64,000 nt of DNA from Candidatus Woesearchaeota archaeon (GTDB lineage: Archaea; Nanobdellota; Nanobdellia; UBA10117): NCBI GenBank assembly GCA_964354105.1, contig CAYGXM010000002.1, positions 14,398-78,397 on the forward strand, read 5' to 3'. The stretch's first letter is position 1. Each line of letters begins with the position of its first letter. Shown here piece after piece: positions 8,337 to 32,170 of the stretch. The notes beneath the pieces are model-generated. The model saw only the letters and a list, made by a program, of their open reading frames with translations. It did not search any database and was not told the origin of the DNA. A program made the position numbers and the translations under genes.

Positions 8337-9010
8337 GTATTTTTTTTGATTCTTCTGCACTAATCAGCATGGCCGTGACCTGCTCGCTTCCTCTTTTAAG
8401 AAAGCTGAAGAAAGCTTACGCCGGCGAGTTTTACATAACGGATACTGTTTACCAGGAAACTATAGGGCGGGCACTCCAGTCCTTGAGATTTAGATACGAA
8501 GGCCACAGGTTAAAAGAGCTCCTGGATGAAGGCATAATAAAAATTTATCCGGATAAACAGCTTCAAAACAGCATGACAGAGCTAATGAATTTAATTAACA
8601 ACACATATTTTACAGAGGGGCAACCTTTGACCATTGTGCAGAAAGGAGAGATGTCTGCAATAATCGCGTGTATAAAAGAGAATGGTGATACAGTCGCGGT
8701 GGATGAAAGAACTGCCAGGCTCTTAGTAGAAAGTCCGGAAATGCTCAAGCCCTGGCTCGAGGCAAAATTTCACACCCACTTAATTATTAATGAAGACAGC
8801 GCAGATAAATGGAGAACGCAAATTTCTGAAAAATTTCTGCCCTTGCGCTCAGCGGAATTTGCGCTTGCGGCCTGGCAGAAAGGAATCCTGGGCAAAGACA
8901 AAGATGTCTTTTATGGCCTGCTTTGGGCCCTAAAGTTTGCCGGCTGCTCCATGACTGAGCAGGAAATAAACTTTTATATGAAAGGTGCAATTGAGCAATA
9001 TGGCCCGTAA
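8333..9010 (+). CDS. PIN-like domain protein (putative nuclease), 225 aa
   Basis: The N-terminus IFFDSSALIS fits the first acidic PIN motif, with further acidic residues (YQETIG, AVDERT) at plausible spacing. Weak. Confidence 0.35.
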   Translation: MSIFFDSSALISMAVTCSLPLLRKLKKAYAGEFYITDTVYQETIGRALQSLRFRYEGHRLKELLDEGIIKIYPDKQLQNSMTELMNLINNTYFTEGQPLTIVQKGEMSAIIACIKENGDTVAVDERTARLLVESPEMLKPWLEAKFHTHLIINEDSADKWRTQISEKFLPLRSAEFALAAWQKGILGKDKDVFYGLLWALKFAGCSMTEQEINFYMKGAIEQYGP

Positions 9011-9985: not shown

Positions 9986-10615
9986 TTATCCAATCGTATA
10001 CAAAACTTCTTGTAATTTGAATGTTGTTCCTGGCTCAACAAAAACTTGCAGCTCGAAATTAGCCGAGGTAAATTCGCCTGAACTTAGGTAACAGCTATCC
10101 ATGCAAACTGCAGTAACTGAGCCGCTTGCTGAATTCTCTCCGAGATTGCCTGGCCAATCTAATTTTTTACCTTCGTCTATCAATAAGCTTGCATTTTGCT
10201 CGACTTCAACTGCATGCGCCGCAGGTATTCCTGTTGCAGTGCCTGTTATCAAGGACGGCTTTTCCTTTTGCCCGACATTTGTATAAACCAAAGACCTTGA
10301 ATTGCCATTTGCCAGATAAATTGCAACATCGCCCTCGCCCTTAGTTTCGCCGGACAAGCTGAACGAACTAATATAAATCGGCTCGCTGGAAGCTGATTTT
10401 AAATCAAGGGCCTGGCTTTCTGTAAATTCCATGTTCAGGATTTGAGCTTTTGTGTCTGATGCCACAAATCCTGTCATGGATGTACCAAAGAACAGCAAAG
10501 GCACTGCTATAATCGCAGCTATTATGAATATAAACTCGTATTTGCGAAGCTTAGACTCACTGTCAATTTTTGCATTCTTTGCTTCCTTGCCTATCATCAC
10601 TGATTTCATATTCAT
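9986..10615 (-). CDS. membrane-anchored surface protein, small paralog of the giant proteins' N-terminal module (209 aa)
   Basis: N-terminal TM, then SLSGETKGEGDVAIYLANGNSRSLVY ... ITG ... CMDSCY, the same module as in 10612-11076 and in both giants. Confidence 0.55.
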   Translation of the reverse strand: MNMKSVMIGKEAKNAKIDSESKLRKYEFIFIIAAIIAVPLLFFGTSMTGFVASDTKAQILNMEFTESQALDLKSASSEPIYISSFSLSGETKGEGDVAIYLANGNSRSLVYTNVGQKEKPSLITGTATGIPAAHAVEVEQNASLLIDEGKKLDWPGNLGENSASGSVTAVCMDSCYLSSGEFTSANFELQVFVEPGTTFKLQEVLYTIG

Positions 10616-11076
10616 TTGTAGACTACCCTGCTAATTATAATACTTGTGCTTGGTTCCAGCTCAACATACAGCGAATAAGGATGATTTTCAGTTGTGAAGT
10701 AGCAAGTTTCTTCGCAGGCATTCCTAAAGTAATTCGCATCTGCCTGGGATGCAGCAACATAGCCTGTTATTCCCGCCGGCTTTTGCGTCTGCAGGCCTGA
10801 ATAAACCAAAAGCCTATGATTGTCTGAATCCTGAAGATAAACCTTGGCCTTGCCCGGCCCTTTGATAATTCCTGTTATGCTGAATGAAGTTATATCATCG
10901 TCTATGCTTAAATTATGGGCTGATGTCTCTGAGATTTCCAAGTTTACATCCTGGCCGCTGTATTGTGGGTTAAATATGGCTGCGGAATGTGTATTTAACA
11001 AAAAGGGGGCAAATAGCACAATAATTATAGCAAGTACTAATAATATTGTCAGGTTTTTATGCTTCATCTTTTCCAA
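10612..11076 (-). CDS. membrane-anchored surface protein, small paralog of the giant proteins' N-terminal module (154 aa)
   Basis: TM, then SITGIIKGPGKAKVYLQDSDNHRLLVYSG...AGITG...CEETCY. Overlaps neighbours by 4 and 20 nt. Confidence 0.55.
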   Translation of the reverse strand: MEKMKHKNLTILLVLAIIIVLFAPFLLNTHSAAIFNPQYSGQDVNLEISETSAHNLSIDDDITSFSITGIIKGPGKAKVYLQDSDNHRLLVYSGLQTQKPAGITGYVAASQADANYFRNACEETCYFTTENHPYSLYVELEPSTSIIISRVVYK

Positions 11077-12937
11077 ATCCTATTGATGCCCTTTTCAGCT
11101 CTTCCTGGGCGAGCTTGACCTTTTCCTGCGCCATTTTCATTTTGTCCTCGGCTATTTTTTTCTTGTATTCCTGCAGCATCTTTTCAGCCTGCTGTTTTTC
11201 TGAAAATGCAATCTGTTTTATCTTTATGGCTTCAGCGCGCTCCTTTGCAATTTCCTCTTTAGCCTTTTCCTTTTCTTTTGCAATTGAATCCTGCAGGGCT
11301 TTCTTAGCTAATTGCGCAGCTTTCAGCTCTTCGGCAGCTTTCAATTTTGTTGCTTCAGCTGCCTTCACTCTTTCTATAGCTGCTTTCTTGATGTTGGCGA
11401 CATCTGAGAGCCTTTTGTTGATTACAAACTGTTCCTTCTCAAACTGCTTCATCTTTGTAGCCTTGACTTTTGCAAGCTCTGAATCTACCTTCTTCTTTTC
11501 AGCAGTTATTGCATGATTTTGTGATAGAATGTATTGATAGCGGTCTTCAACCTGTGCCCTCAACTGTTCTGCCTGTTCTTTCTCTTCCTTGATTTTTGCC
11601 AAGGCCTCCTCAACTATCTCCTTTGCAGAGCATGCGTTGTTCCTTTCCTGCTCAACTGTGCTCTTTTGTAATGCTAATTCATGAATTTCTTTTTCCAATT
11701 CCAATCTTTTCGTTTCTTCGAGCTTCAAGTCGTCCAAGAGCTTCTGCTTTAACGCATGGGTTTCTTCCAGCTCCATTGAGAGCTTTAATTTATCCTGCTC
11801 AATTTCTCTGAGTTTGTTTTCTGCTTCCCGCCTGAATCCTTCAGTCTTGGCGCGTTCTGCTTCAATCAGCTCCCGGGCTCTTTGTTTTTCATTTTCTATT
11901 TGTGCCCTAAGCTTTTCCTTTTGATTATCCATTTGCTCAGCGAACTTTCGCTTTTGCTCAGCAAGGCTTTCTCTTGCTTTTTGCTTCTGCTCGCTAATAA
12001 CCTCGAGAGCCTTGTGCAACTTCTCATCAATCCTTTCCTTTTCACCCTCAAGATTTTCCCGCTCATTGTGCACGTCCTTTAATTCTGTCTCGACCTCAGC
12101 TTTTTCTTTCATGACGGCATCAAGTTCTGCAGCAGCTTTGCGCTCATGCTCTTCGGCGTTCTTAAGCAGCTGCTCTGTCCTGATTTTCTCTTCATCCAGC
12201 AGCAACCTTGCTTTGTGTGCTTCGTCTTCTGCCAGCCGTTTTTCCTGCAATAAGCTCTCTTCAGTATCTTTTTTGATGCTTTGTAATTTCTCAATCTCGG
12301 ACTTAGCGTTCTTTTGCTCTTCTTCAATCAGCTTTCTTGCTTTCTGCTTTTCTGCAGATAGAATTTCTTCATATCTTTGCTTCAATTGAGAATATCTGTG
12401 ATTCAATGCTGAAATTTTCTCGCTTGCCCTTGCTTTTTCCTCTTCCAGCTTTTCCTTTTGGACATCCAGATTTAGCTGAACACGCTGTCTGGCAATTTCT
12501 AAGTCGTCATAAAGCCTCTTTTTCTCCTTCTCCAAGGCTATTTTTTCCTGCTGCATGCTCCCCAATTCTGTCTTAGTTTCTTGGTGTAATCTTTCTGTTT
12601 CAGAAAGCCTCTCTTCCGATGCCTGCTTTTCAGCTTCTATAGCCTTAACCCTGTCCGCCAGTTGCGTTCTTGCCTCAACAACTGTCTGGATCTGCACCTG
12701 TTTTTTCTTTTTCTCTTCAAACAGTGCATTTTCAAGTTCCTTTATTTTATTCTTGAGATTTTGATTTTCTTTCTGCAATCCTTCAATAGCATTCCGCTTC
12801 TCACCCTTCAGCCTGTCGATTTCCTGGTCTTTGACAATAGCCACGTCAAGTTTTTCAGAGATCTTTTGCTCAAATTCCTCTATCTTCTGCTTTTCTTCCT
12901 TCAATTTTTTGCTTGTGCTAAAGAGATTAAATGCCAT
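11057..12937 (-). CDS. 626-aa cytoplasmic coiled-coil protein (E/K/Q/L/A-rich, no signal or TM)
   Basis: Heptad-like low-complexity sequence throughout. Its start overlaps the end of the 3488-aa gene by 11 nt. Confidence 0.55.
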   Translation of the reverse strand: MAFNLFSTSKKLKEEKQKIEEFEQKISEKLDVAIVKDQEIDRLKGEKRNAIEGLQKENQNLKNKIKELENALFEEKKKKQVQIQTVVEARTQLADRVKAIEAEKQASEERLSETERLHQETKTELGSMQQEKIALEKEKKRLYDDLEIARQRVQLNLDVQKEKLEEEKARASEKISALNHRYSQLKQRYEEILSAEKQKARKLIEEEQKNAKSEIEKLQSIKKDTEESLLQEKRLAEDEAHKARLLLDEEKIRTEQLLKNAEEHERKAAAELDAVMKEKAEVETELKDVHNERENLEGEKERIDEKLHKALEVISEQKQKARESLAEQKRKFAEQMDNQKEKLRAQIENEKQRARELIEAERAKTEGFRREAENKLREIEQDKLKLSMELEETHALKQKLLDDLKLEETKRLELEKEIHELALQKSTVEQERNNACSAKEIVEEALAKIKEEKEQAEQLRAQVEDRYQYILSQNHAITAEKKKVDSELAKVKATKMKQFEKEQFVINKRLSDVANIKKAAIERVKAAEATKLKAAEELKAAQLAKKALQDSIAKEKEKAKEEIAKERAEAIKIKQIAFSEKQQAEKMLQEYKKKIAEDKMKMAQEKVKLAQEELKRASIGFGKDEA

Positions 12938-15900
12938 TATCTTTGTCTCCTCTTGTTATTTTCCTATTTAGATAATTGCTGACCTTATCGTAGAGCCTCT
13001 CCAGGTGCTTACGCTCCTCCGCCAATAATTCAACTTCCAGGGCCATCTCCTCTCTCCTTTTTACAATAAGGGCTATAATAAATATTACGGTTACTGTTGC
13101 GGCTAGAATCCACCACAGCCACCTTCCACCAAAGAACTGTGCTATATTTATCGAGGGCAATGTGGGCAGAACAAATCCGGCAGCTGGCAATGCTTTTCCG
13201 CATATCTCCAGCTGAATTTCTTGGACCATGCCATATGCAGACTTTATCAGATTCCTGGCTAAATCATAATTTCCTCTTGCAGCCGCATCTTCTGCTGCCT
13301 TGAGGATATTATCAAGATCTGTAGTCTTTGTTTTCAATTCATTATACATATTTCGAAGCTCAATCAAGCTGTTGATTATATCCTGCGGAACTCCTGGTGG
13401 CAACACAGGCGCAGTGATGTTAACAGGCACACCAACAGCAGGTGCTGGTGCTGGCGGCACTACGGGCGGAATAACTGCAGACGTGACATCAAAGGCCTTG
13501 CTGGCATTCGCATCAGCTGTCGGCCAGGTTAGTTTAGACACGAAAAGGTACGCGCCAGGCGTTGACGGCGCCGTCAATGTTATCGCGGCTGTAGCTGACT
13601 GGTTTCTTCCAATAAAGATGGTCCGCACATCTAACGCAGTAATGTTTCCGAATGAGTCTTCAATCCATGTTGTCAATGTTCGGTCTTCAGATATTTCCGA
13701 ATTCATGTTAATTGCCTTGACGACTCCTGTAATTGTGCTGCCTGCCGTAACGGATGCGGGCAGGCTGTCTATAATAACATCATACGGGCCGCCATAGCCA
13801 GGTATCTGCACAGAAGGCTGGTTTGAATAATAAAATACCGCATTTGCAGAAGCTGTCGCCTGGGTAAAGTTGTATGTATAGCTTTGGCTGCTCTTTGCTA
13901 TCAATTTTGTCCCATTAAAGGACACTGATGCTCCTCTTGTGAGATTTACAAATGTTGTTAATCCAATATCTGAATCTACAACAGATATTCCAGTTAAATC
14001 CTCTCCGCCCGCATTTACAATCTGGTCCGTTATGAGATATGTTATATTAGTTGTTGTCTGGTTCACAAATGCGACATTCTTGATCAAAATCAGCTGTGCT
14101 GCAGTAATGTTTTGCGGTATCACAATAATTGGCTGGTTTGATTCCACAAACAAACTTGTATTATAGAATGGGTCATAGCCTGTGGCGTTCGCTTTTTGCA
14201 GTGTTATAGTATTATCAACAGAACCCCGTGCGTATGTTAGCAAATAGCTCTCTATGACTTCCTGTGCACCATAAATGGAACCTATGCTCCAATTCTGGCT
14301 GGCGTCAGGGTCTGTTAGTATGGTATTCTCTGACGTTCCTCTTCCATTTGCAAGGTATAATGAAATGTTATAAGTGATATGTGATGAGTTTATGGCCTGC
14401 ACGCTCGGTATTTTATGCAAGAGAAGATTTGCCTTCTGGCCTGATTCAAGTAAGAAAACGCTGTTGTTTGTATAAACACCAGCATGATAATATGTTTTTG
14501 TTGCATTTATTCTTGCATCATATATCTTAGGTGAAGCCATGCCTGTCGTGTCCAAAGTGCAATTATAGAATCCGCTTCCTTCTTCAACATCATAGCAGGC
14601 ATATACAAAACTGCCATTTATTGGCTCAAATTTAGCATTCGCGCCCGTAATAGGATTTGCCAGCTCGTCATAAACATAACCTTTGAATGTAATATTCTGC
14701 CCTTCATAATATTTCGGCGTTCCTGTTGGAGCAGTTACATATGCATACAAAATGCCAAACACATTCAGGAAGTGTGTCGATGTTGCTGCTGTGTAGTTTT
14801 GTGTCTCAGGCAGAATTAATGTTATATTTCTAGGCCCTAATGCAACGTAAGACGTAAGATTTGTTATAATTGGCGCCCCATTATTAATCAATGCACCATT
14901 GTCGTACAACTGCATATTGCCTTCTCCAGCATTGCGGATTCCAGTTATGTTTACAGTCTGGCTCCTATTGACATTAAAGTCACTATTTGTTCCATTCAGC
15001 AGTAATGTGATGTTTGCTGCAGCTTTGTTAACAGTTACAAAGAACGTTTTGCTGCTTGCCGTGTGATTAAAGTCTCCAGGATTAACAACAGTGTAATTAT
15101 AATAGCCCGCAGCTAAAGTTACTGCAGTATTATTTTCAGCATTTATGTTTGTTCCATTTCGGTACATTGTTGCAGATAATAGATTTGTTGAAAACACTGC
15201 TGTAACAGTCTGCGGATAAGTTATATTCAAATCACTTTCAGCACCATTCAAGCTCAAGTTAACATAAGTCTGGGCAATATTTACAGTCAGGAAGAATGTC
15301 TTTGAGCTGCCAGTCTTGTTTGCATCGGTTGGAATAACTGCAGTATAATTATAATAACCTACTGCTAAAGTCGTAATTTCTGAAGTTCCAACATTAGTTC
15401 CATTTCTGTATAATGCCACAGTTCCATTATATCCGATTGCAGTTACATTAGTTGAAGTGCCATAAGTTACAGTCAGATTATTCTGTGCTCCATTTAGATA
15501 CAAATCGACTGCAGTCGGCTGTATGCCGACTGTTAATGTTCTGTTAATGGTATTTGAAGTATAATTTTCTCCGCCTGTTGTATTATATGTATAAACATAA
15601 GTGTTAACTCCTAGTGTTGCAACATCTGAAACTACTGAGCCGCTTCCAATTGTAGTACTATTTCTATACATAGTATACGTTACGTCAGAATCATTTGTAT
15701 TGCTTTCAAATGCGGTTGCATTTGTTTGTGTTGGGTATGTAACGGATTTATCGGCAGCAACGCCATCCAGCAATAAGTTTACTGTTGGTGTTGCTTTGTT
15801 GACTGTCAAGAACCAGGTTTCAGAGCTTGGCAGGTAATTTGAATCACCAGAATTTATGGCGGTGTAGTTGTAAGTTCCGGCTCCTAATGTTGCAATTTCA

Positions 15901-18900
15901 GGATTTGTGACATTAGTTCCATTCCTGTATAATGCCACAGAGCCCGCTGATGTTATTGCAGTAGCATTGCTTTGAGCTCCATAAGTTATTGTGGCATTTG
16001 CCTGTGCTCCATTCAGATACAAGCTGGTTGTTGTCGGCATTTTATTGATTATATAGGTAAATGTGCCTGTGCTGTTTGAATTTCCGGCAGTGTCGTTTGC
16101 ATACCATTTGTAATTATAGCTGCCAGCATTCAATCCGACAAAGGTCTTGCTGTAGACATCTCCAGATTGGACTGCATTAGTGTAATTTGTCCCATTAAAC
16201 TCGAATATTACTGTTCCTACGGCATAATTATCTGTCCAGGTTGCATTGAATTCATATGTCTGTGTCGGTGAGTATGTTGTGGGGCTTGCCGGGCTCTCTG
16301 AAAGATTGAAATATTGCGGCGGAGTCTTGTCTATCACAAACAAGACGGATTCAAATGATGGATAGCCAACATTATTCCTTGCATATACTGTAAGATTATA
16401 TGTGCCTGAAGGCAAAGCGCCTACATTAACTAAGTCAGTCCAGTTAAATATAGGCTGGTTTATTGAATTATTTGAATTTGACTGCACAATCGCACCTGTT
16501 GAATTAGTTATATTATACGAGCTCGCAGTAAGCATGTTGTTTTGTATAAATACATTCAAGTTGAAGTTGGAGCCCCATTGCGAGTTATTCAATGGTGTGA
16601 AAATCTGTATGAGTGGGGGGGTATTATCTATTGTAAAGTTTACTGAGCTATTTTGCTGGTTTCCTAATGTATCATTCGCATACGCTGTAAAGGTGTAATT
16701 GCCTTCGCTGACAGTTGTGGTGTCCCACGTATCATTATAAATTGGCTCTGTCCCCGACATTGTTCCTGATTTCACAATTCCTGACGTATTAGTTATTTCA
16801 TACCAGACAGAATTAACGCCAACTAAATTATCTGTAACATTAACTTCCAGAGTAGTAGTAAAGCCCAAGATGTCATTCTGTACTGGCCTGATATGGACTA
16901 TTACCGGTGGTGTTGCATCAACTGTCAACAATCTTGTTTCACTCTGGCCTGTATTGCTGGCCCCGTCAGTGCAGTTTACATACCATTGATTATATCCTTC
17001 AAGCACTGTTGTATTTGTTATTGTTGTTGCTGTATTATTCGCAACAGAAGCATTAGTTCCGCTCGGCGCATCATTAATGTAAAGCGTACAATTTATGGTT
17101 GTATATTGATTATCTGTTGCATTAAATATAAAATTCTGTGTTTGTGTTGTGCTTGTTGTATTGTTACCTGGCGACATCAAGTTTACAACTGGCGGCGTAG
17201 CATCAACTGTAACAGTCCAGTTTGCCGGCGCGAATGCACAGTTGTTTGATGTGTCGCAAGCCAGACAATTCCACAATATTATACCATTATTCAGATTAGT
17301 TTTTTGGAAAGTTGTTTCATTTGATGTTCCTGTAATTATATTTGTGCTATCGGCTGAGAAAATTCCCGTATAATTCCAATACAAGGTCATGTTAGCAAGC
17401 TGATAATTATCTGTTGCATTACAAGTGAAGTTAAGGTCTTTCCCATTTGCGCTTCCGTTTGGCGGATTCACAAGTGCAGTAGTCGGAGGCGCGCAGTCAG
17501 TTATGTTTATGCTGTCAGACACTGTTATGCGTGGCCTGGTTGGGAACGTTGTCTTGATACAGCTTACATTGTAGGCCTTCAGGCCTGTTGAGCTGAAAGT
17601 TCTTGCATACTGGTAATAATTCGATGTGGCATTATAGGTCATTGAATTGCCTGTTGAGTCTGTGAAATTTATGATGCAAGTAGCACCTGTATTTGTAAAG
17701 TTGTTTCCGCCGAGCACCCTGTAATAATACGCATAAAAGTCTATTGAGCTTCCAACGCAGGCGGGTCTGTTGTTGCCGGGCATTCCAGTGTCATTCTGGT
17801 CCCAGATGAGCAATCTGGAAGTTCCATTTGTCGAGAAATTGGTGAAATGCGCAACATCAAATGTCACTGTTCCTGTTGTATTTTCATAAGTGACATTCTG
17901 GCAAGTCGTGTTGCTGCATATTTCGCCATTAATAAGCACGTTAAAGTCCTCAGTATCGCTCCAGTTAAGGCCTCGTAGCTTCAATTGTGCGCTTGAGTTA
18001 AATGTTGGATTCAGGCCAAAGTCAACTGAAATAAAGTTGTCCGAAATGTTTACATAAGTGTCAAAGTTCTGGCTTGCTGCATTTACACAGCCCTGCCATT
18101 GTATCTGTCCGTATGATGGTATTTCCAGTACTGCCTGCCCATTACAAACATTTGTCAAATCAGGCAGCGTCGCCCAATTTGTCGTATTGCCTGTGTAATT
18201 TGTTGAAATTGGAACTGCAGCTGTGTTGACAGCAAGTGCGTATGTTGCAGAGTTATTTGCATTTCCTGCAGCATCAGAGGCTCTGCAATACCAGTTGTAA
18301 TTGCCATTTGTCATGGTTTTGCTGAATGTTGTGCTGTTGCTTGTTCCAGTAACTATATTCGTCTGGTTCAGCACGCTGTTTATGTAAAGTGAAATATTTG
18401 CGAGTGCGATATTATCTGTTGCAGAACAGTTGAACAGCACAGAGCCATCGCCGTCTACCGCATTATTGGCGGGGCTGTTCTGAGTAACTGTCGGCGGGGT
18501 TATATCCGGAACAGTTACATTAAATGTCATTATATTCGTTGAATTCCAATTGCCCTGCGTGTCATTTGCCCAGATTCGCCAGCCAATTATGCCGCTGGCG
18601 GAGCTGTTGCTCCAAGTAAAGTTGCTCCAATTTCCAGTGCTCGGGCCTATTTGCAGCGGGGAACCATAAACTCCAGTCTTATTTGCCCAAACTCCACCAG
18701 ATTCATTTGTTGAAAGCATTGCATAACTCAAGTTTACATTGTCTGTCCAGTATGCAGAGAGCTTAATTGAGCCAGTATTATTTATTACACTCGCATTCTG
18801 GCTCTGGCTTGACCATCGTGGCGGTTGTATATCTGTCCAATTAACTATAAGTCTTGGCTGCCGAGATGTATTGGTTGCATCATTGCTGCTCACATAATAT

Positions 18901-21900
18901 TTTCTATTAGTTCCTGACTCAGTTTCATCTTTTATTATCCAGCCGAAGTTTTGTGCCTGGTTGTCTGTAAAGTTCTGCACATCTGCAGTTACATTCCAAT
19001 AATAGAATCCAACAGCGTTAACAGATGTATTTGCTAGCTCGTTTGCTGCAAAGTCGCCTCCAGTTGTTGTCCATGAGTTTCCAGTGCTGTAAACATTCCA
19101 TGTTACCTGAAGCTCTACCCAGTTTCTTGCCGGAGACTGCTGGACTTTGTGCGCACCATGAGTTCTTGCGCCCGCCCCGTCAACATTATTAAACATATAA
19201 AGAGAAAGGTTTGCATTGTCTATCCTTACACCTGATGGTATGCTGGATAAATTGAATTTTATTATGCCTCTATGCACACCTGCACCTCCGCTTCTTCCTA
19301 CTCTTATGCTGCTGGCAGAGCCATAATTGCTACCTGTAGAACCCGCTCTGATGTAAGAATCATTTGTCACCGCAGTTCCAGAGTATGTATTCACACCTTG
19401 TACTTCAAATCCTCCCGAAGTTGTAAAATTAAAGGCCGCAAACCCTGTTTGGTCGCCTGGCACAAATGTAATGTTGTAAAGCGTGCCTGGTGTCAAACCA
19501 TATGCTTCTGTTGCCCAGTAATCTTCATCGCAAGATTGTAATGTATATGTATAATTATCGCACCTTGTAAGCACGTCCCCTGCGGGGTTAACAGTCAGGG
19601 TCGCAGTCTGGAACTGCCCGAGCGGATTAACTGCAAATTCGGCAAGCGAACCTGCTGCAGGTGTTGGCTCATCAAGGCCCGGCAATGCAAAACTGCCGTC
19701 AACAGTATAGTTGTAATATGTTATTGCTGAAACGCTTGCTGAGCTTGCTGGCTGTATTATTATGGTATAATTACCGCCAAACAGATCAAAGTTATGTACA
19801 GTATTAGTTTGTGAATAAACAGTCTGGCCTGTGGAGTTTATTATTGTAAGCGCCACATTTACCGGCGCTCCTGCAGCATTTGTTACGCTATTGTTTTGGT
19901 CTGCAGAAACTGCATATGTTTGTGCGGTGTTATTCACAAAAGTTGCATTAACATTACCGGAATTATCTGCTGTTCTCGTGCCAATTGTGTGGCTAGTTGC
20001 AGCTGAAAAACCTGTTGCATTATAGCTGCTGCTTGGTGTTGAAACATTTGCAGTATAACTGCCATCAATCCAAATTTCTGTATGGTTGAAATCGCTGTCA
20101 GCAGGGTTTGTCCAAGTCCAATATATCCAAGTTGCGCCGCGCGATGAAACCGCCAAATTAGTTACAGCTGCGGGGGGTGTTGTATCTGAGCAGGCTAAAG
20201 TTACTGCAGAATCCATAACATTTGTTGTATTTACATTTCCAGTTGTATCTTTAGTGTTAATTGTTATATTATGTGTAGTATTGCAACTGAAACCTGTTGC
20301 GTTATAATATGCATTTGAAGTATTCAATATATTTGAGCCGTCTACGTAGATTATTGCCTCACTGAAGTCAGAGTCGCCCGGATTTGTCCATGCCCAGTAA
20401 ATCCAAGTTGTTCCTGTTGAAGTCTCATTCAAATTCGTAACTGCAGCCGGAGGTGTTGTATCAGGAGGAGGAGTGCTCGCTATTGTCAGATTATAGTTCA
20501 TTGCAGAATAATCAGAATAGGTATTGCTTCCTGCCAAATCAATTGCCCTGCATCTCAAGTCGACATTAGACTGCTCTGCAATTCCAGAAAGGTTCCATAA
20601 GTAAGTGCTTTCATTTGTATGATTGCCAATTGCAGTCCAAGAATAATTATAACCGCCAATAGTATAAGTTATACCTGGGATTATGTATTTATTGCCCGAC
20701 TGGCTGCCAGTTGGAACTGTACTATCCAGATCATTGTTTGTCGAGCTCTCATAATAGCTACCAGTTCCTGTCGGCGGGTAGTTTGCACAGTTCGCGCTGT
20801 CATCCCTTCCAAGATTATAAGTCGCAGAAATAGGAGCAACGCCTACATAATAAGTCTGGCCCAATGTAATCGTTATTGGTGTTGCCAGAGTTCCACTTAT
20901 CCACCCTGATGCACCTGTTCCAGTCAATGTTACTTCCTCAGATATCTGGTTTCCACCACTGCTATACAACGCCATTTCTAGAGTCTCGCTGGCTGAGAGG
21001 CTCGTATCTGCCTGCCAGAACCAGAGTTTAGTTAATGTGGCAGTCCCAGAGCCGGGAATTGTCCACTGGCTATAAAATTCATAGCTTCCAGATGCATAAG
21101 TGCTGTCACTGCAGGAACTTGGAACTTGAGTTGCAGTCTCTGAAGAAGTTGAGTGATTATAGTAAGCATCAATAACATAAGTAATTGTATCATTATCTGC
21201 ATCTGTTGAGCCTGAACAACTTATGTTCACGTCTTCATAGAATATACTGTTGCAGCTGCTGCCATCACAAGTTATGCTTGTTGGTGTTGTTGGCGGGTCA
21301 TTATCTATGTAATTAATAGTTAAAGGAACGTAATCCATTACCAGCCATGAATCCTGGCTGTCGCCAACACTTCCAATAGCCTCATATCTTGTTCTTACCC
21401 AGCCACTTGAATTAACATAATGTAAAAGCCCTGATGTTACTGTATAACTGTCTACTACTGTATTTCCACCATCATTTGTTCTTAAATCTCCTATATCTAC
21501 CCATGTACTGCTAGTCCAATTATATATCCAAACATCCTGTGTGCCAGTCCAACTTCCTTCTGCCGCATCGCCATCGCAGGCAGCAGGAGCAGAACCAGAA
21601 CCATCGTGGCAATATGTTGCAGAAAATGTCATATTTGTGATGTCTGCGCCAGTTATGCCAAGCGAACTGATATTATACTCAAGAACTATTACTGAATTCA
21701 ACGTATCTGTAGATGTTTCACCTGCATAGAAATAAGTTGTATCATCTGCTTGTGTTGCGGTGTATGTTCCGCCTTCCTCATCATCTCCTTCATTATCTGT
21801 CACATAACCTGCATCAGGAGTTCCGCTAGACGGACTTCCCTCTGCAAAACCAGGGTCATCCGGCGTTAATGTAAATGAATAAGTTTCTCCAGGCGTTATG

Positions 21901-23393
21901 GCCTGCAAAAATACCCAATCGATGCAAAATTGATAAGTTTCATTTGTTTCGTCGTCATAAACATCAGAACACGTTCCAAGACATTCCTGCGTTGCAAAGT
22001 CCCAATTAGCGCATTTATACAAGACTGTACCTTTTGCTTCTACTGTTACAGTTGCTTCGGTAAATTCAAAGCCAGTAGGGTCAATTGCATAAACTTCAGC
22101 ATAGCCTTCATAATCTCCTGTTTCTGGAACATCATCCAGCTTTATGAATTCTGTAACATTTTCATCTATGACTAAATCATCAAATATTATTTCTTTTACG
22201 GGGTGATTTTGCGGCTTTACCTTGATGTCATACTTGCCTTTAGGGATATCCAAGCCCGCTTCTCCTGTTTCTTCTTCAACAACTGCTGCCCCCTGGAATA
22301 ATGGAATCTCTTCAATGGATTTTTCTTTTTCTTCGCTTTTGCCTATGGCTTCAAGCTCGTCAGTTTCCGCATCAACAAATTCAATCGTAGCTGCAATTGT
22401 GTTATTACTTGAATCTTCGATGCCTGTTGCAAAGAAAACCGTTTCATTTGTTATATTTTCAACCTGAGAAATTAGCAACTCATAATAAATAGAATCCAAT
22501 TTCAAAACTGCTTCGGATTCTATTTCAATCTGCAAGATATAGCTGCTTTTATTCAGCATTTCAGAAATATAACAAGTTTCTTCACAAACAGTTTCAAATA
22601 GGATTTCTTCGGCTAATGGAATTTCTATTGTTTGGTTTTCAGTTACATTTTCAAGTGTTGTAACATTTTCTTCAGGAATTGTGATGTTTTCTGTTGGAAT
22701 TTCTGTTGGTTGAGTTTCATTTGCTGGTTCTTCAGCTGGAGGCTGCTCAACTGGAGGGATTTCCTCTGCTGGAGGTTCTTCAGTTGGCGGAATTTCTGCG
22801 CCAGAGCCACTGGTGGTGTCAGCCTCATTTGGCTGGCTTTCGTCCGGAGAAGATAATTCTCCGGAGGATGGTGGCTCTGGCTGTGCAGTTCCAAGCGGAT
22901 TTGCTAATCCGCTGGATCCCGCTGAACTTTGTTCAGCTTGGTCCTGCGAATTCGTACTCTCATCGGAGGATGAGCTTGATTCGGTATCTGCTGCGGCAAA
23001 AGCAGTAATAGGAGAGGGTCCTGTTTTGAGGTTTGAAGAATCGAAAATTAATAATCGGCTGGAATCTGTGACAAGATAAACCTTGGCATTTCCGGTAATT
23101 GCACCTGAGAGTTTTACAGAAGTCAGCTGGAACTCCCCTGCAGGAACGTTCTGTAAAGTCCAGTTATATTCATAAGTTTCTGCAAATTTCTCATTAATAA
23201 CATCAGAATATGCTTTCTGCTCTCCTGCTGCAAAGAAACCAATAATTCTAGGTCCTGCAACAAAAATAAATGCAACAAGCGCAATCAGCACAACTATAAA
23301 CCCAATTATCAATAGTTCTTTTGCTATTGGCTTGTGGGCATATTCTTTTATCTCCCTTTTCACTTTTTTCAATTTTGATTCTTCTGATTTCAT
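12927..23393 (-). CDS. giant cell-surface protein, 3488 aa
   Basis: Uninterrupted 10.5-kb ORF with an N-terminal TM and the shared AKVYL/CEETCY module. Contains an acidic S/E/P/T linker, Ig/Fn3-like repeats with a WIYWxWTNPxDSDF motif, and about 80-aa tandem repeats (LYRNGTNV...YNYTA). Hundreds of N-x-S/T sequons, a Pro-rich stalk, and a C-terminal TM plus about 45-aa charged tail. Confidence 0.8.
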   Translation of the reverse strand: MKSEESKLKKVKREIKEYAHKPIAKELLIIGFIVVLIALVAFIFVAGPRIIGFFAAGEQKAYSDVINEKFAETYEYNWTLQNVPAGEFQLTSVKLSGAITGNAKVYLVTDSSRLLIFDSSNLKTGPSPITAFAAADTESSSSSDESTNSQDQAEQSSAGSSGLANPLGTAQPEPPSSGELSSPDESQPNEADTTSGSGAEIPPTEEPPAEEIPPVEQPPAEEPANETQPTEIPTENITIPEENVTTLENVTENQTIEIPLAEEILFETVCEETCYISEMLNKSSYILQIEIESEAVLKLDSIYYELLISQVENITNETVFFATGIEDSSNNTIAATIEFVDAETDELEAIGKSEEKEKSIEEIPLFQGAAVVEEETGEAGLDIPKGKYDIKVKPQNHPVKEIIFDDLVIDENVTEFIKLDDVPETGDYEGYAEVYAIDPTGFEFTEATVTVEAKGTVLYKCANWDFATQECLGTCSDVYDDETNETYQFCIDWVFLQAITPGETYSFTLTPDDPGFAEGSPSSGTPDAGYVTDNEGDDEEGGTYTATQADDTTYFYAGETSTDTLNSVIVLEYNISSLGITGADITNMTFSATYCHDGSGSAPAACDGDAAEGSWTGTQDVWIYNWTSSTWVDIGDLRTNDGGNTVVDSYTVTSGLLHYVNSSGWVRTRYEAIGSVGDSQDSWLVMDYVPLTINYIDNDPPTTPTSITCDGSSCNSIFYEDVNISCSGSTDADNDTITYVIDAYYNHSTSSETATQVPSSCSDSTYASGSYEFYSQWTIPGSGTATLTKLWFWQADTSLSASETLEMALYSSGGNQISEEVTLTGTGASGWISGTLATPITITLGQTYYVGVAPISATYNLGRDDSANCANYPPTGTGSYYESSTNNDLDSTVPTGSQSGNKYIIPGITYTIGGYNYSWTAIGNHTNESTYLWNLSGIAEQSNVDLRCRAIDLAGSNTYSDYSAMNYNLTIASTPPPDTTPPAAVTNLNETSTGTTWIYWAWTNPGDSDFSEAIIYVDGSNILNTSNAYYNATGFSCNTTHNITINTKDTTGNVNTTNVMDSAVTLACSDTTPPAAVTNLAVSSRGATWIYWTWTNPADSDFNHTEIWIDGSYTANVSTPSSSYNATGFSAATSHTIGTRTADNSGNVNATFVNNTAQTYAVSADQNNSVTNAAGAPVNVALTIINSTGQTVYSQTNTVHNFDLFGGNYTIIIQPASSASVSAITYYNYTVDGSFALPGLDEPTPAAGSLAEFAVNPLGQFQTATLTVNPAGDVLTRCDNYTYTLQSCDEDYWATEAYGLTPGTLYNITFVPGDQTGFAAFNFTTSGGFEVQGVNTYSGTAVTNDSYIRAGSTGSNYGSASSIRVGRSGGAGVHRGIIKFNLSSIPSGVRIDNANLSLYMFNNVDGAGARTHGAHKVQQSPARNWVELQVTWNVYSTGNSWTTTGGDFAANELANTSVNAVGFYYWNVTADVQNFTDNQAQNFGWIIKDETESGTNRKYYVSSNDATNTSRQPRLIVNWTDIQPPRWSSQSQNASVINNTGSIKLSAYWTDNVNLSYAMLSTNESGGVWANKTGVYGSPLQIGPSTGNWSNFTWSNSSASGIIGWRIWANDTQGNWNSTNIMTFNVTVPDITPPTVTQNSPANNAVDGDGSVLFNCSATDNIALANISLYINSVLNQTNIVTGTSNSTTFSKTMTNGNYNWYCRASDAAGNANNSATYALAVNTAAVPISTNYTGNTTNWATLPDLTNVCNGQAVLEIPSYGQIQWQGCVNAASQNFDTYVNISDNFISVDFGLNPTFNSSAQLKLRGLNWSDTEDFNVLINGEICSNTTCQNVTYENTTGTVTFDVAHFTNFSTNGTSRLLIWDQNDTGMPGNNRPACVGSSIDFYAYYYRVLGGNNFTNTGATCIINFTDSTGNSMTYNATSNYYQYARTFSSTGLKAYNVSCIKTTFPTRPRITVSDSINITDCAPPTTALVNPPNGSANGKDLNFTCNATDNYQLANMTLYWNYTGIFSADSTNIITGTSNETTFQKTNLNNGIILWNCLACDTSNNCAFAPANWTVTVDATPPVVNLMSPGNNTTSTTQTQNFIFNATDNQYTTINCTLYINDAPSGTNASVANNTATTITNTTVLEGYNQWYVNCTDGASNTGQSETRLLTVDATPPVIVHIRPVQNDILGFTTTLEVNVTDNLVGVNSVWYEITNTSGIVKSGTMSGTEPIYNDTWDTTTVSEGNYTFTAYANDTLGNQQNSSVNFTIDNTPPLIQIFTPLNNSQWGSNFNLNVFIQNNMLTASSYNITNSTGAIVQSNSNNSINQPIFNWTDLVNVGALPSGTYNLTVYARNNVGYPSFESVLFVIDKTPPQYFNLSESPASPTTYSPTQTYEFNATWTDNYAVGTVIFEFNGTNYTNAVQSGDVYSKTFVGLNAGSYNYKWYANDTAGNSNSTGTFTYIINKMPTTTSLYLNGAQANATITYGAQSNATAITSAGSVALYRNGTNVTNPEIATLGAGTYNYTAINSGDSNYLPSSETWFLTVNKATPTVNLLLDGVAADKSVTYPTQTNATAFESNTNDSDVTYTMYRNSTTIGSGSVVSDVATLGVNTYVYTYNTTGGENYTSNTINRTLTVGIQPTAVDLYLNGAQNNLTVTYGTSTNVTAIGYNGTVALYRNGTNVGTSEITTLAVGYYNYTAVIPTDANKTGSSKTFFLTVNIAQTYVNLSLNGAESDLNITYPQTVTAVFSTNLLSATMYRNGTNINAENNTAVTLAAGYYNYTVVNPGDFNHTASSKTFFVTVNKAAANITLLLNGTNSDFNVNRSQTVNITGIRNAGEGNMQLYDNGALINNGAPIITNLTSYVALGPRNITLILPETQNYTAATSTHFLNVFGILYAYVTAPTGTPKYYEGQNITFKGYVYDELANPITGANAKFEPINGSFVYACYDVEEGSGFYNCTLDTTGMASPKIYDARINATKTYYHAGVYTNNSVFLLESGQKANLLLHKIPSVQAINSSHITYNISLYLANGRGTSENTILTDPDASQNWSIGSIYGAQEVIESYLLTYARGSVDNTITLQKANATGYDPFYNTSLFVESNQPIIVIPQNITAAQLILIKNVAFVNQTTTNITYLITDQIVNAGGEDLTGISVVDSDIGLTTFVNLTRGASVSFNGTKLIAKSSQSYTYNFTQATASANAVFYYSNQPSVQIPGYGGPYDVIIDSLPASVTAGSTITGVVKAINMNSEISEDRTLTTWIEDSFGNITALDVRTIFIGRNQSATAAITLTAPSTPGAYLFVSKLTWPTADANASKAFDVTSAVIPPVVPPAPAPAVGVPVNITAPVLPPGVPQDIINSLIELRNMYNELKTKTTDLDNILKAAEDAAARGNYDLARNLIKSAYGMVQEIQLEICGKALPAAGFVLPTLPSINIAQFFGGRWLWWILAATVTVIFIIALIVKRREEMALEVELLAEERKHLERLYDKVSNYLNRKITRGDKDNGI
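14700..16300. repeat. intragenic tandem DNA repeats, about 245-nt period, encoding Ig-like repeat units
   Basis: Recurring gttccatttc(g/t)gta(c/t)a(a/t)tg..cacag blocks near 15151, 15397 and 15914, plus recurring aattataata(g/a)cc..gctaaagt blocks near 15100 and 15340. Confidence 0.5.
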
Positions 23394-26300
23394 TAGAGCT
23401 TGATTTTCTTGCCACCGTGCCTTACATGATGGAATAATACTGCAAGAATGGTTACAGCTAGCCCTGCCAGAAAAACAGCTATGCCCAAAACGAGCTTGTC
23501 AGCGGGGATTGTGGTCTGCAGTGCTGTAACTGCAACAGTGGCGCCTGTAAGAGGTGTTTTAACAAAAGTGAATATCAGCAGGATGATAATCGTAATTATC
23601 AAAGCGATGTGCAATGCAGTCAGGGCATTTTTCAGCCGCGGCGGCAGATTTTCTTTCCTCATGGCAGCTATAGCAAATACAAGAATCAACAGTAAAAGTG
23701 TTGGAACAGCATACAATGGATTAGGAGCCTTGTATGGGCTGACTTGTACGGCTGCACCTGATAGAGGTTCTGGTGGTGAAGAGGGGATTTCCAGTCCTGC
23801 AGGCGTTGTCTCTGTGGGCGGGGTTGTTGAAACTGGAACAGTTTCCACTAGAATTATAATCCTTAATTTTGCTGAAGTATTTGTTTTTGCAATTAATGTG
23901 ATTTCGATATCGCTCTCACCATTATAATTAGCGTCTACATCTTTTGTTTCGTTTAATTCAAGATTAACTTTAACAGGCGCTGAAGTTATAGTTAGCTCTA
24001 CATAATCAGGGAACATTCCAGATAGCCTAATTGTATGAACTGTATTTGGTGAATAGCTTGCCGCATATGAAAACGTGCCGCCAAATGCCAAGTCTAAGTC
24101 TTTTGGCTGGCCAGGTGACAGGACAGCTTCTGCAGTTGCATTGCCAATCACGCCTGTACCACCGCCTCCACCACCATTATTGCCATTATTTCCGCCGGCT
24201 GCAGACGCCACGCTAAATGAATGCATTGTGCTAACATTGTTTACATTTCCAGAGGTATCGTTGCATTTGTAATACAAAGTATATGTCTGGCCGTTGCTCA
24301 AACCTGCATATGTAAAGTTGTGGTTTGTCGAGTCTGTATTTGTAAAGTTAGTTCCATCTGCGTAGGCAAAAGTTGAATTTGTTGTATTATATCTGCAAAT
24401 TGCATCCTCATTTGTTGTTATTTCGATTGTAGTTGAAGTTGTGCCTGCGCTTAACTGAGAGCCATTTGTCGGGCTCGATATCGTTATAACTGGCGCTGTT
24501 GTATCAGGCAATGCAGATATTGTAACATTATCCTGTCCTATTGCGCCATTTCCAGTGCCATCATTAGGTGTTACAACACATTTCCAAACATCTCCAATAG
24601 TTGTTAAAAGATTTGATAATGTATTAGCTGTCTGGCCTACCTGCAAGACATCATTCTTGTACCATTGATATGCATAATTAATTGAATCATTGTCCAAATC
24701 TGTTGATGCGCTTGTGATTGTCGCAACTAAATCTTCAGTATCTGCAGGCACATTTGGAATAACATCTACAACAGGAGCTGACGGCAAGGAGTTTGTTATA
24801 GTCCTTGCGACAGATTTTGCAGTTCCATAATCATTTCCATCATATGGAATAACTGAGCAATTCCACGTTTCTGTTTTTGTTGTATTGCCCGCTGCTAATA
24901 TTACAGAATTCTCAGTTCCGTTTGTTACACTTAATATTGCTGATAGAATTGCTGTTGAACCATTATACCAAGTGTAATTAGCAGTTAGTGTGTCTACAGC
25001 ATCAGCATCTGTTATTGTAAATGTGCAATTCAAGTCATCATTTGTATAAGCTATTGCAGGCGTTATTGCTGGTGTTGTGGAAACTGGGATATTATTGTAT
25101 GACAAAGTTCTAGCAGTTGAATTTACATCAGTATTATTGATGTTTCCATTTGTATCTTTAGTATGCACAGTTAGTGTATAATCCGTAAAGTTTTGCAGGC
25201 TTGTTGCATTATAATAATTATTTGACGTATTCGCAACATTGCTTCCATTTAGATAGATAATGGCCTGGCTGAAATCAGCATCAGCAGGATTAGTCCAGTT
25301 CCAATATATCCAAGTCTGGCTTCTGCTTTGATTTGCCAGGCTGGTTACTGAAGCAGGAGGTGTTGAATCTGCATGCAAAGTAACGGTTCTTGTTTCTGTA
25401 TTAGCTTTGTTTCCAGCAGTATCAACAGCATAGCCTTTGAAAGTGTAATTTCCATAAGATAGGCCTGTGAAATTATTGTAGTACTGGTTTGCTGTTGCGT
25501 TGTATAATGCAAGAACTTCAGAGCTGGACAAAGCTCTCCTGAACATCATGACATCATCAATTGAGCCATTAAGATAGCTTGCCTGATATCTGCCAATCAG
25601 TATGTTAAACGACTGATCCTGGACATCTCCTGTTTGAGCCTGCGTCCTCACTAGAGTACCATTGATATAAAGATTAATGGAACTTCCATTGTACACACCA
25701 ACTGCATGATACCATGTGTTTGTTGAAATAGGATATGTGGAAGTTGCCTTGTGTGTTGTTGCATTGGCGACATCAAAAATCAGATTAGTAGTTGAGATAT
25801 ACAAATTATAAGAGCTTGACGAAGCTGCCCTGTTGCTTACCAAGCCTGCTGATTGCGAATTTCTATACTTAAACCATAAGGAAATAGTCATCGCGGTAGT
25901 AAAATTAAAATCCTCATTATATGTCACTTGAATATATTGAGATGACGCTGAGTCAAAGTCATAACTTCCATTAAACACGCCGCTAGAATTATATGTTGGG
26001 CAAACTGAACATGAGCCAGTGTTTCCACTGCCAGAATCATCTGTAAATGATGTTCCACTAGTCTCTTCTAATCTCCACCAGCCGACTAATGCACTATCCC
26101 AATCCAGCATAGCATAGTGCTGGCTGCTTTCATCGGTGCTGCTTGCATTCACATAAACATAATTATTAGTTGTTGTATTTCCATCGCTTGGCGTTGGACT
26201 TACAAAGGAAATTGTTGGCGCTGCTCCTGTTTCACCATATGCAGGGTCGCTTGCTGTTAATGTTACCTCATATGGCTGGCCTGGTGTTATTTCCTGAACA

Positions 26301-27622
26301 AAAGTCCAGTTGCCATCTGTGCAAGTCTGATTTTCAAAGTCCCAACTCGCACATTTGTATAATGCGCTTCCTGTTGCAGTCACTGTAACAGTAGCTTCTG
26401 TAAAGTTAAGTTCTGTTGGATCAATAGCATAAACTTCAACATAACCTGTATTTGCTTCTGGAACATCATCAATGCCAATTACAGCATTTACATCGGATGT
26501 TGCATCAATGTCTTTGAATTCTATGCTCTGGATTGGAACACTTGTGTTCTGAACATCCACAACAAGATTATTTTCATCACTCGGAGCTGTTTCAAAGCTC
26601 TCCATATTGCCTTCGGCAGATATCTCATTGGCAGGAGGTGCAAAGATTTCGTTAGCTATAGTTTGCTGTCCTGTTGTTTCTTCAGCAACAACAGATTTTC
26701 CAGAATCGTCAACTAAAGCTATGTCTGCTGCAACTGGCTGGCCGTTGCTGTCTACAATTTCTATAGTTATGTTAACGGGAATATCTGTAAGATTCTGCAA
26801 TGAATAGCTTATTTCAGAAATGGAGAGCTCTCCATTTTCCACTTGGATTTCAAGAGTGTAAGTATTATCAGCCAAACCATCTGGAAGCAAGCAAGATTGC
26901 TCGCATGAATCCGTAAATGTTACAGGTGTTATCTCTATTGGCAGTGTTTTATTCACGATTTCTTCTGCAGTTACGTTTTCTGTTGTTGAGACATTCCCCT
27001 CAGCAGGTGGAATTTCTGTTGGTTGAGTTTCATTTGCTGGCTGTTCTTGAGCTGGCGCAGGTAATTCTGCGCCAGCTTCGCCTTGATCTGTGGTGTCAGG
27101 TACAGATTCCTCTTGAGCATTAGTTTGCTCAGAGGATGGTGGCGAAGCTGGTTCTGCAGACTCCTGCGAATCGGAGGATTCGCCGGAGCTACCCACATCT
27201 GAACTGGTGGTGTCAGATGAGCTTGAACTTGGATTGCTGATAACTTCAGTAAGAGCGCCTGTAACGGCATCCGCGAGAGATTCACTTTTCACTAGATTGC
27301 TAGAATCAAAAACGAGATAAGTTTCATTTCCAGTTTTTAGAAAGACTTTAGCAGAGCCTTCTCCGCTAAAAGAACCTGAAATCTTTAGGGCTTTCAAATT
27401 GTAAGGCTGTTCTTGGGGAATTTCAAATGTATAATCGCTGTTTGATGTGAATTTTTCATTAATGGAAGCTGAAAAATCTTCAGCAGGCGCAAAATATCTG
27501 CCTGTGATTTTAGGATTATGAAATAAGACTACGAGAGCTACGACTATGATAGCTGTTATGAGGAAAATGTATGTTGTTGCACTAGCTATAGGTTTAGTTA
27601 GTTTGCGGTCTGACACCACCAA
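23393..27622 (-). CDS. giant cell-surface protein, 1409 aa, with LamG (concanavalin A-like) domain
   Basis: N-terminal TM and the shared module. LamG signature at aa ~505-708 (LVGWWRLEETSGTSFTDDSGSGNTGS ... MTISLWFK ... WYHAVGVYNGSSINLYINGT), nt ~25499-26110. One WIYWNWTNPADADF Ig-like domain, a Gly-rich stretch, a TPP-rich stalk and about 4 C-terminal TM helices. Its stop overlaps the next ATG by 1 nt (TAATG). Confidence 0.8.
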   Translation of the reverse strand: MVVSDRKLTKPIASATTYIFLITAIIVVALVVLFHNPKITGRYFAPAEDFSASINEKFTSNSDYTFEIPQEQPYNLKALKISGSFSGEGSAKVFLKTGNETYLVFDSSNLVKSESLADAVTGALTEVISNPSSSSSDTTSSDVGSSGESSDSQESAEPASPPSSEQTNAQEESVPDTTDQGEAGAELPAPAQEQPANETQPTEIPPAEGNVSTTENVTAEEIVNKTLPIEITPVTFTDSCEQSCLLPDGLADNTYTLEIQVENGELSISEISYSLQNLTDIPVNITIEIVDSNGQPVAADIALVDDSGKSVVAEETTGQQTIANEIFAPPANEISAEGNMESFETAPSDENNLVVDVQNTSVPIQSIEFKDIDATSDVNAVIGIDDVPEANTGYVEVYAIDPTELNFTEATVTVTATGSALYKCASWDFENQTCTDGNWTFVQEITPGQPYEVTLTASDPAYGETGAAPTISFVSPTPSDGNTTTNNYVYVNASSTDESSQHYAMLDWDSALVGWWRLEETSGTSFTDDSGSGNTGSCSVCPTYNSSGVFNGSYDFDSASSQYIQVTYNEDFNFTTAMTISLWFKYRNSQSAGLVSNRAASSSSYNLYISTTNLIFDVANATTHKATSTYPISTNTWYHAVGVYNGSSINLYINGTLVRTQAQTGDVQDQSFNILIGRYQASYLNGSIDDVMMFRRALSSSEVLALYNATANQYYNNFTGLSYGNYTFKGYAVDTAGNKANTETRTVTLHADSTPPASVTSLANQSRSQTWIYWNWTNPADADFSQAIIYLNGSNVANTSNNYYNATSLQNFTDYTLTVHTKDTNGNINNTDVNSTARTLSYNNIPVSTTPAITPAIAYTNDDLNCTFTITDADAVDTLTANYTWYNGSTAILSAILSVTNGTENSVILAAGNTTKTETWNCSVIPYDGNDYGTAKSVARTITNSLPSAPVVDVIPNVPADTEDLVATITSASTDLDNDSINYAYQWYKNDVLQVGQTANTLSNLLTTIGDVWKCVVTPNDGTGNGAIGQDNVTISALPDTTAPVITISSPTNGSQLSAGTTSTTIEITTNEDAICRYNTTNSTFAYADGTNFTNTDSTNHNFTYAGLSNGQTYTLYYKCNDTSGNVNNVSTMHSFSVASAAGGNNGNNGGGGGGTGVIGNATAEAVLSPGQPKDLDLAFGGTFSYAASYSPNTVHTIRLSGMFPDYVELTITSAPVKVNLELNETKDVDANYNGESDIEITLIAKTNTSAKLRIIILVETVPVSTTPPTETTPAGLEIPSSPPEPLSGAAVQVSPYKAPNPLYAVPTLLLLILVFAIAAMRKENLPPRLKNALTALHIALIITIIILLIFTFVKTPLTGATVAVTALQTTIPADKLVLGIAVFLAGLAVTILAVLFHHVRHGGKKIKL

Positions 27623-27673
27623 ATGTGACCATCCTCCGATTACTAATTTTATAGTATGGGTATATTATAAATG

Positions 27674-32147: not shown

Positions 32148-32170
32148 GGCCTTAATTGAAGTGTGAAACC

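Follow-up and report, generated by a model that had tools for sequence, protein, structure and literature searches.

Among DPANN archaea, the closest described counterparts of the system considered here are the SPEARE-type giant proteins of the nanohaloarchaea (SVXNc_0300, BNXNv_0298), in which a huge immunoglobulin (Ig)-rich ectodomain with a proposed role in host interaction is followed, after the transmembrane (TM) helix, by a cytoplasmic VirB4/TraG-like ATPase and a terminal coiled coil, all in one polypeptide (PMC10266531). A second group comprises the coiled-coil proteins (CCPs) of Hamm et al. (2024), which are long, DPANN-restricted, include members from Woesearchaeota and are implicated in cell-cell interaction; their genes lie beside CpaF, TadC and pilin genes, and the proteins have been likened to extracellular viral attachment fibres (PMC11291902). 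The locus described here lies in a 64,000-nucleotide (nt) stretch of DNA from a Candidatus Woesearchaeota archaeon (the window), and centers on a gene for a 3488-amino-acid (aa) surface protein, the giant, and the gene that follows and overlaps it, which encodes a 626-aa coiled-coil protein, CC. The locus shares with the SPEARE-type giants a DPANN host, a huge Ig-type ectodomain, a TM helix and a cytoplasmic coiled coil, but the coiled coil is here a separate, translationally coupled 626-aa protein and the giant ends 44 residues past its TM helix; Pfam reveals no ATPase domain in either the giant or CC, and no sequence similarity to the SPEARE-type giants was detected. Unlike the DPANN CCPs, CC is encoded in a giant-adhesin operon and lacks an export signal, and none of the 26 window open reading frames (ORFs) scanned matches CpaF, TadC, pilin or any other type IV pilus family. 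CC is set apart from those CCPs by the description of their loci rather than by direct sequence comparison, a HMMER family search with CC having given only its own seven members. Literature searches yielded no description of a giant with a separate, coupled cytoplasmic coiled-coil gene. The first-pass annotation of this DNA knew of no such pairing for archaeal giants, a statement that calls for qualification in view of the nanohaloarchaeal giants with a fused cytoplasmic coiled coil (PMC10266531) and the CCPs in pilus-like loci (PMC11291902), both already reported. The CC system is a lineage-restricted new variant of a known principle, the coupling of a transmembrane adhesin to a cytoplasmic coiled coil, carried out here by an orphan family.

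Looser parallels come from other systems. In Mycoplasma, P1-type transmembrane adhesins have cytoplasmic tails and their positioning depends on long cytoplasmic coiled-coil proteins such as HMW2, a link established experimentally. The analogy would lie in minimal, host-dependent cells that pair a tailed adhesin with a long coiled coil; the Mycoplasma proteins are bacterial, unrelated in sequence and different in gene organization, and the functional link in the present case is inferred. GpsB/DivIVA-type adaptors are cytoplasmic coiled coils that bind the short tails of bitopic membrane proteins and organize them spatially, but they are only ~100-200 aa long, form defined Pfam families and have other partners; the N-terminal head of CC gave a sub-threshold, generic match to DivIC (septum formation initiator family, E = 2.2). 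Crescentin, FilP and Scy are segmented heptad rods with breaks, without an enzymatic domain and with a submembrane scaffold role. CC resembles such intermediate filament-like proteins in architecture only, i.e. in its heptad rod, register shifts, two helix breaks and lack of an enzymatic domain; there is no homology, nor is any of the three tied genetically to a giant adhesin.

The giant (window positions 12927..23393; this and the features below are on the minus strand unless noted otherwise) contains Disaggregatase-related repeat and Big_7 (Ig-like) domains. As the first-pass annotation had it, the protein ends in a TM helix (WLWWILAATVTVIFIIALIV, residues 3425-3444; 13062..13121) and a charged, heptad-like cytoplasmic tail of 44 residues (KRREEMALEVELLAEERKHLERLYDKVSNYLNRKITRGDKDNGI, residues 3445-3488; 12930..13061), the two being modeled by AlphaFold2 as a single continuous helix. 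A conserved amphipathic helix forms the core of the tail (EEMALEVELLAEERKHLERLYDKVSNYL; 12969-13052), with M-V-L-R-L-Y-V-L at its heptad a/d positions. The CC gene (11057..12937) starts within the giant gene, its ATG at 12937 lying in an 11-nt overlap (ATGGCATTTAA; 12927..12937) with the stop of the giant, also as originally noted, and a GGAGA Shine-Dalgarno sequence (12946..12950) is placed within the tail coding sequence 8 nt before that ATG. The interval singled out at first pass, 11057-13080, begins correctly with the CC gene but cuts the TM coding region, which reaches 13121.

From this arrangement it had been suggested that CC binds the tail and, as a cytoskeleton-like scaffold, tethers or organizes the giant from inside the cell, and whether orthologous giant genes are also followed by a long coiled-coil gene therefore bears directly on the suggestion. 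Synteny was scored in every lineage for which upstream DNA was available, other lineages and loci being given L-numbers and protein matches P-numbers. A TM helix and tail followed by an overlapping CC start is found in the window lineage and in six others (L002/L006/L007; L003/L010; L004; L005; L008/L009; L012). More distant giants, found when the membrane-proximal 760 aa served as query, add two lineages (P0013 and P0014 in L011 and L015), whose stalk is 41-44% identical and whose helical tail is alignable but diverged. In L011 and L015 a long, K/E-rich helical gene follows after gaps of 49 and 6 nt, respectively, behind an AGGAGGT Shine-Dalgarno sequence. These two genes are counted as positional analogues with a weak N-terminal resemblance, homology with CC being unproven from their sequences. 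The L011 gene (2303-4842) encodes a coiled-coil protein of at least 846 aa, with a very basic insert after the N-terminal motif and two tandem repeats of ~85 aa.

Across the nine lineages the junction takes the form of an 11-nt overlap in six (ATGnnnTTTAA or TTTAG), a 1-nt overlap in one (TAATG) and the 6- and 49-nt gaps in the two distant ones, and a GGAG-like motif stands at equivalent spacing in all. Six related surface proteins whose C-termini are of another kind served as negative controls, these ends being a long disordered tail, a PRC-barrel domain, a K-rich tail, a repeat domain and short basic tails. The co-occurrence and coupling to be expected of an adhesin-tail partner are thus seen in 9/9 lineages that have the tail, each with a coiled-coil gene directly downstream, and in 0/6 of the controls. 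In the lineages examined, the CC gene is obligately coupled to giants with this helical tail, and the coupling is translational.

The related surface proteins offer observations of their own. P0015 (L016 60-2720), related to the stalk of the giant, has a PRC-barrel domain after its TM helix (PF05239, 25.3 bits, above cut-off). Other tail types occur on P0029 (L017 5001-8588) and P0012 (L014 103-3450): one of the two is a cytoplasmic domain of ~100 aa with two ~35-aa repeats and no Pfam match, and the other is a charged, proline-rich tail of ~140 aa. These DPANN surface proteins look modular at their cytoplasmic ends.

CC is composed of 19% E and 17% K, with no Pro and no Trp. Its coiled-coil character, questioned by counting heptad-compatible 28-residue windows, is borne out by a coverage of 80% of the protein against 40 +/- 9% in shuffled sequences (shuffle maximum 62%). 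The absence of a signal peptide or TM helix, likewise claimed at the outset, agrees with a highest 19-residue Kyte-Doolittle mean of 0.15, and the cryptic signal peptide that would have spoken against a cytoplasmic partner is found in none of six full-length CC orthologues, nor is a TM helix. CC is cytoplasmic, all-helical and heptad-patterned, and has no export signal. The AlphaFold2 model consists of three long helices (8-250, 267-430 and 439-618) with a mean predicted local distance difference test (pLDDT) score of 72; with helix lengths of 36, 24 and 27 nm, the modeled protein would measure ~90 nm extended or 25-36 nm folded back.

Conservation is unevenly distributed along the rod. The six full-length CCs are 46-75% identical; the N-terminal head (residues 1-85, motif KISEKLDVAIVKDQEIDRLKGEK; 12683..12937) has a pairwise identity of 72% as compared to 51% for the rod. 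In mid-rod, a motif (QVEDRYQYILSQNHAITAEKK, residues 462-482; 11492..11554) is kept in five other full-length lineages and in the fragment P0004, which duplicates L008, and is absent in L005. The C-terminal helix (KKIAEDKMKMAQEKVKLAQEELKRA, residues 593-617; 11087..11161) has 65% identity and the consensus KKLAxERxKxAQEKxRxAQEELKRA. The 32-aa tail core of the giant has a mean pairwise identity of 65% over 7 lineages, the consensus of the tail being (K/R)RxE(E/D)MAxExELLxEERxHLExLYxKV. By aligned identity, the tail helix and CC residues 1-85 are the best-conserved cytoplasmic elements. Because synonymous changes are found at 40-55% of identical codons (40% in the head), the constraint on CC and the tail operates at the protein level. 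Indels between CC orthologues are mostly of 7, 14 or 11 residues, sizes expected for a rod that keeps its register. As judged from these comparisons, the CC gene is real and under protein-level selection.

CC has no significant match in Pfam, NCBIfam, PHROGs, PADLOC, PDB sequences or Foldseek. A word-indexed search of 5.8 billion clusters gave a single homologue, P0001, at 73% identity, and an exhaustive HMMER search of 1.84 billion representatives gave 7 members, mostly fragments, at 37-74% identity, with no known family and no generic coiled-coil proteins matched. Further loci were sought with a 69-nt degenerate DNA pattern built from the conserved CC head, which identified six metagenome loci and one GTDB genome locus and nothing in viral contigs; a query made of the giant's last 200 aa returned one fragment only. 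All traceable copies of CC lie in Woesearchaeota-type contigs, L010 and P0013 being labeled Candidatus Woesearchaeota, as are the genomes that stand closest to the window among labeled relatives; the proposed complex would be confined to one clade of Woesearchaeota. The L009 contig (1-1424) looks chimeric, ~120 CC codons giving way to unrelated high-GC sequence. CC is an orphan family. Two broad classes of helical proteins were set aside: SMC/Rad50-type proteins, in which Walker A/B ATPase heads flank an antiparallel coiled coil, with no Pfam or NCBIfam match and CC helical over residues 8-618 without globular ends, and PspA/Vipp1/ESCRT-III, with no Pfam match at E <= 10 for either full CC or its head and an unbroken helix over residues 8-250 against the ~100-residue hairpin of that fold. 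The sole resemblance of CC to the PspA superfamily is presumably a short N-terminal MxFxLF motif. Nor is CC a phage tape-measure protein or part of a defense system, there being no PHROGs or PADLOC matches and the context being a cell-surface operon.

CC is encoded by the third of five minus-strand genes that are chained by successive overlaps of 1, 11, 11 and 4 nt, and the five genes are translationally coupled. The first (23393..27622) is for a membrane-anchored surface protein of 1409 aa, which has a Laminin_G_3 domain (Pfam PF13385, E = 1.3e-26) and, according to a TM scan, an N-terminal TM helix and three C-terminal ones; its stop codon overlaps the ATG of the giant by 1 nt (TAATG), and a TATA-like sequence (TTTATAATAT) lies upstream at ~27650-27665. 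A scan for sigma-70 promoters and terminators remained at chance level with models that are not relevant to archaea. The giant itself also has an N-terminal TM helix (residues 27-47; 23253..23315), which had been missed at first pass and is preceded by a charged 26-aa cytoplasmic segment conserved between the window lineage and L002. The predicted topology is N-in and C-in, with an ectodomain of roughly 3370 aa. A model of giant residues 3170-3488 (12927-13886) runs from a beta-sandwich through a disordered Pro-rich linker and an extracellular helical hairpin to the helix of TM segment plus tail; the beta-sandwich is macroglobulin (MG)/FnIII-like, with Foldseek matches to complement C3 MG domains and GH3 FnIII-like domains.

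Downstream, CC has its own 11-nt overlap (ATGAAGCATAA) with the next gene, a second feature that had escaped the earlier annotation: the ATG of a 151-aa protein (10612..11067), which is anchored by an N-terminal TM helix and has a small extracellular domain, lies ahead of the CC stop. Its orthologues occupy the equivalent position in L002, L006, L008 and L010. A 4-nt overlap (ATGA) leads to the last gene (9986..10615), for a 209-aa paralogue of the 151-aa protein (27% identity) with a 27-aa charged cytoplasmic N-segment, a TM helix and an extracellular domain. Neither of the two has a significant match in Pfam, NCBIfam, PHROGs, PADLOC or PDB sequence searches. In L004 (4481-7657) the place after the CC gene is taken by that of a second large N-anchored protein, longer than 1059 aa, and there is no 151/209-aa pair, so these two proteins are not universal members of the operon. 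CC is the sole protein of the five without a membrane segment, and its gene is the only long E/K-rich ORF in the window.

A reading of the locus in which we place about as much belief as doubt is that CC may be the sole soluble cytoplasmic subunit of a five-gene envelope complex, its head docking on the tail and its rod anchoring, clustering or positioning the giant. A ribosome finishing the tail at the membrane would reinitiate on CC, and by virtue of this reinitiation the emerging CC head would meet the tail helix beside it and could dock there as a short helical bundle. The remainder of CC would form an elongated submembrane rod, ~25-36 nm folded back or up to ~90 nm if extended, that anchors, clusters or positions the giant host-binding adhesin, and the rod may also bridge cytoplasmic segments of the other operon proteins.

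Several observations weigh against this reading. A hidden Markov model of the six CCs gives no significant match to the coiled-coil genes of L011 and L015, the best being 5 bits over 28 N-terminal residues (MGLFKIKHTLDEEQKKLDLLEKNVSKKLDL). The comparison of 9/9 with 0/6 has a Fisher p ~2e-4, a value that overstates independence because all positive lineages are related. In conservation the tail does not exceed the membrane-proximal 690 aa of the giant (54-79% identical between lineages), and because this part of the ectodomain is equally conserved, conservation of the tail does not by itself single out a binding site. An early impression that the tail was far more conserved than the ectodomain was accordingly dropped; only the distal ectodomain is strongly variable (3488 aa here vs 2531 aa in L002, 30-51% identity). 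The ~40-residue tail could be in part a spacer that lets the stop-transfer TM helix reach the translocon before termination, and conservation of its terminal GDK is ambiguous because the Shine-Dalgarno sequence is embedded there. The global 3.5-residue periodicity of CC is weak (z = 1.1) because the register shifts repeatedly, and the modeled rod may be a true coiled coil or partly a single alpha-helix.

A more far-reaching version of the docking model, which we advance tentatively and consider somewhat unlikely, would make the operon an archaeal counterpart of an attachment organelle, with CC a submembrane cytoskeletal rod that is co-translationally assembled on the adhesin tail. A rod of up to ~90 nm in a cell a few hundred nm across might fix the adhesin at a defined site, or might transmit force or signals between the host contact and the interior of the symbiont.

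Of the competing explanations, two are unlikely to about the same degree. In the first, CC is a dedicated, transient assembly or insertion factor that acts at the C-terminal TM helix and tail of the giant or at the ribosome-translocon complex, helping the 3488-aa protein to complete membrane integration or to fold, and is not a permanent structural partner. The C-terminal TM helix lies only 44 residues before the stop and, given the length of the ribosomal tunnel, would barely clear it at termination, and termination-reinitiation coupling puts nascent CC at exactly that site. However, a ~620-residue rod whose heptad and hendecad indels are length-preserving would be unusual as a chaperone, coupled translation speaks for near-stoichiometric and not catalytic quantities, and conserved features at both ends of CC as well as in mid-rod point to several interfaces.

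In the second, also unlikely, CC is a member of the complex whose contacts do not include the giant's tail, or it relays a mechanical or host-contact signal to other components of the cell. Candidate contacts would be the 26-aa N-segment of the giant, the 27-aa N-segment of the 209-aa protein and the loops of the 1409-aa protein. That several operon proteins have charged cytoplasmic segments, that the N-segment of the giant is conserved between the window lineage and L002, and that CC overlaps the downstream 151-aa gene by the same 11 nt as it does the giant are all consistent with this; yet L004, with its large protein in place of the 151/209-aa pair, keeps the junction of tail and CC, and the helical tail is the element that always co-occurs with CC.

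It is quite improbable that CC is a generic coiled-coil protein of division, chromosome organization or the cytoskeleton without functional link to the giant. Coiled-coil proteins are indeed functionally diverse and CC has no domain that would assign a function, but start and stop codons overlap in seven lineages, adjacency holds down to ~41-44% stalk identity while the gene is absent beside giants with other tails, and the family occurs nowhere else among the 1.84 billion representatives, where a housekeeping role predicts a wider spread. Export of CC without a classical signal, as part of an external fibre or stalk, is more doubtful still. Genes for extracellular or anchored proteins flank CC on both sides, and it has been suggested that DPANN CCPs are attachment structures (PMC11291902); against this, no orthologue has an N-terminal hydrophobic stretch, a twin-arginine motif or a TM helix, no operon partner has a Tat-type signal that would permit hitch-hiking, and the positive-inside rule places the adjoining tail in the cytoplasm. 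Least credible, and excluded in practice, is a programmed frameshift that fuses giant and CC into a SPEARE-like single polypeptide: the 11-nt overlap and an A-rich stretch before it in some lineages (GAC AAA AAG) might suggest one, but that stretch is absent in the window, a Shine-Dalgarno sequence precedes every CC ATG, in the four loci read the CC frame extends no more than 10-24 open codons upstream, the offset varies, with +2 in L002 and +1 in most lineages, and the L011 and L015 genes are separate (49- and 6-nt gaps).

The surroundings of the operon are archaeal, the window encoding aIF5B, a RuBisCO large-subunit homologue, Lhr and GluRS. The RuBisCO homologue (429 aa; 1856-3145, plus strand) is probably of the archaeal form III type, and together with aIF5B, Lhr, GluRS and a Y-family polymerase it fits a DPANN archaeal genome of ~40% GC. 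The operon and its neighbors encode surface proteins, PCMT, DUF202, a PIN-like protein and a SpoIIM-like protein. At 7746-9010 (plus strand) a UPF0175-like gene overlaps a PIN-like gene, for which the L002 orthologue gives a weak DUF3368 match; the pair, kept beside the operon in L002, is probably a toxin-antitoxin system. Between 29287 and 32207 (minus strand) lie four genes for small proteins of 213, 194, 197 and 320 aa with N-terminal hydrophobic segments and no Pfam match, the latter two having in common the C-terminal motif ...GQxAGxYxNT...K.V..G. Many anchored or secreted proteins of the window also share a short motif directly after the N-terminal hydrophobic segment (e.g. PRIIGFFAAGE, PKITGRYFAP, SMTGFVASD, SLTGAATTQ, FFTGAATTQ and RQTGFFSIQ), with sites at 23230-23250 in the giant, ~27500-27520 in the 1409-aa protein, 10455-10480 in the 209-aa protein, and in 30592-31185, 29287-29928 and 31245-32207; the motif could be a signal, specific to this lineage, for cleavage or sorting.

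DPANN archaea rely on being in physical contact with a host cell. The CC family is confined to a narrow, uncultivated clade of Woesearchaeota and its function is deduced from genomics alone, and within those limits the locus offers a small, defined pair, the 28-32-residue tail helix and the 85-residue head of an orphan coiled-coil protein. Binding between them, if real, would give a direct handle on how an ultrasmall archaeon organizes its host-attachment machinery, and the pair would represent, with two genes in place of one, an independent parallel to the nanohaloarchaeal giants and their fused cytoplasmic coiled coil. Should the operon in fact be the counterpart of an attachment organelle, it would constitute the first adhesin-to-cytoskeleton transmembrane linkage described in Archaea.

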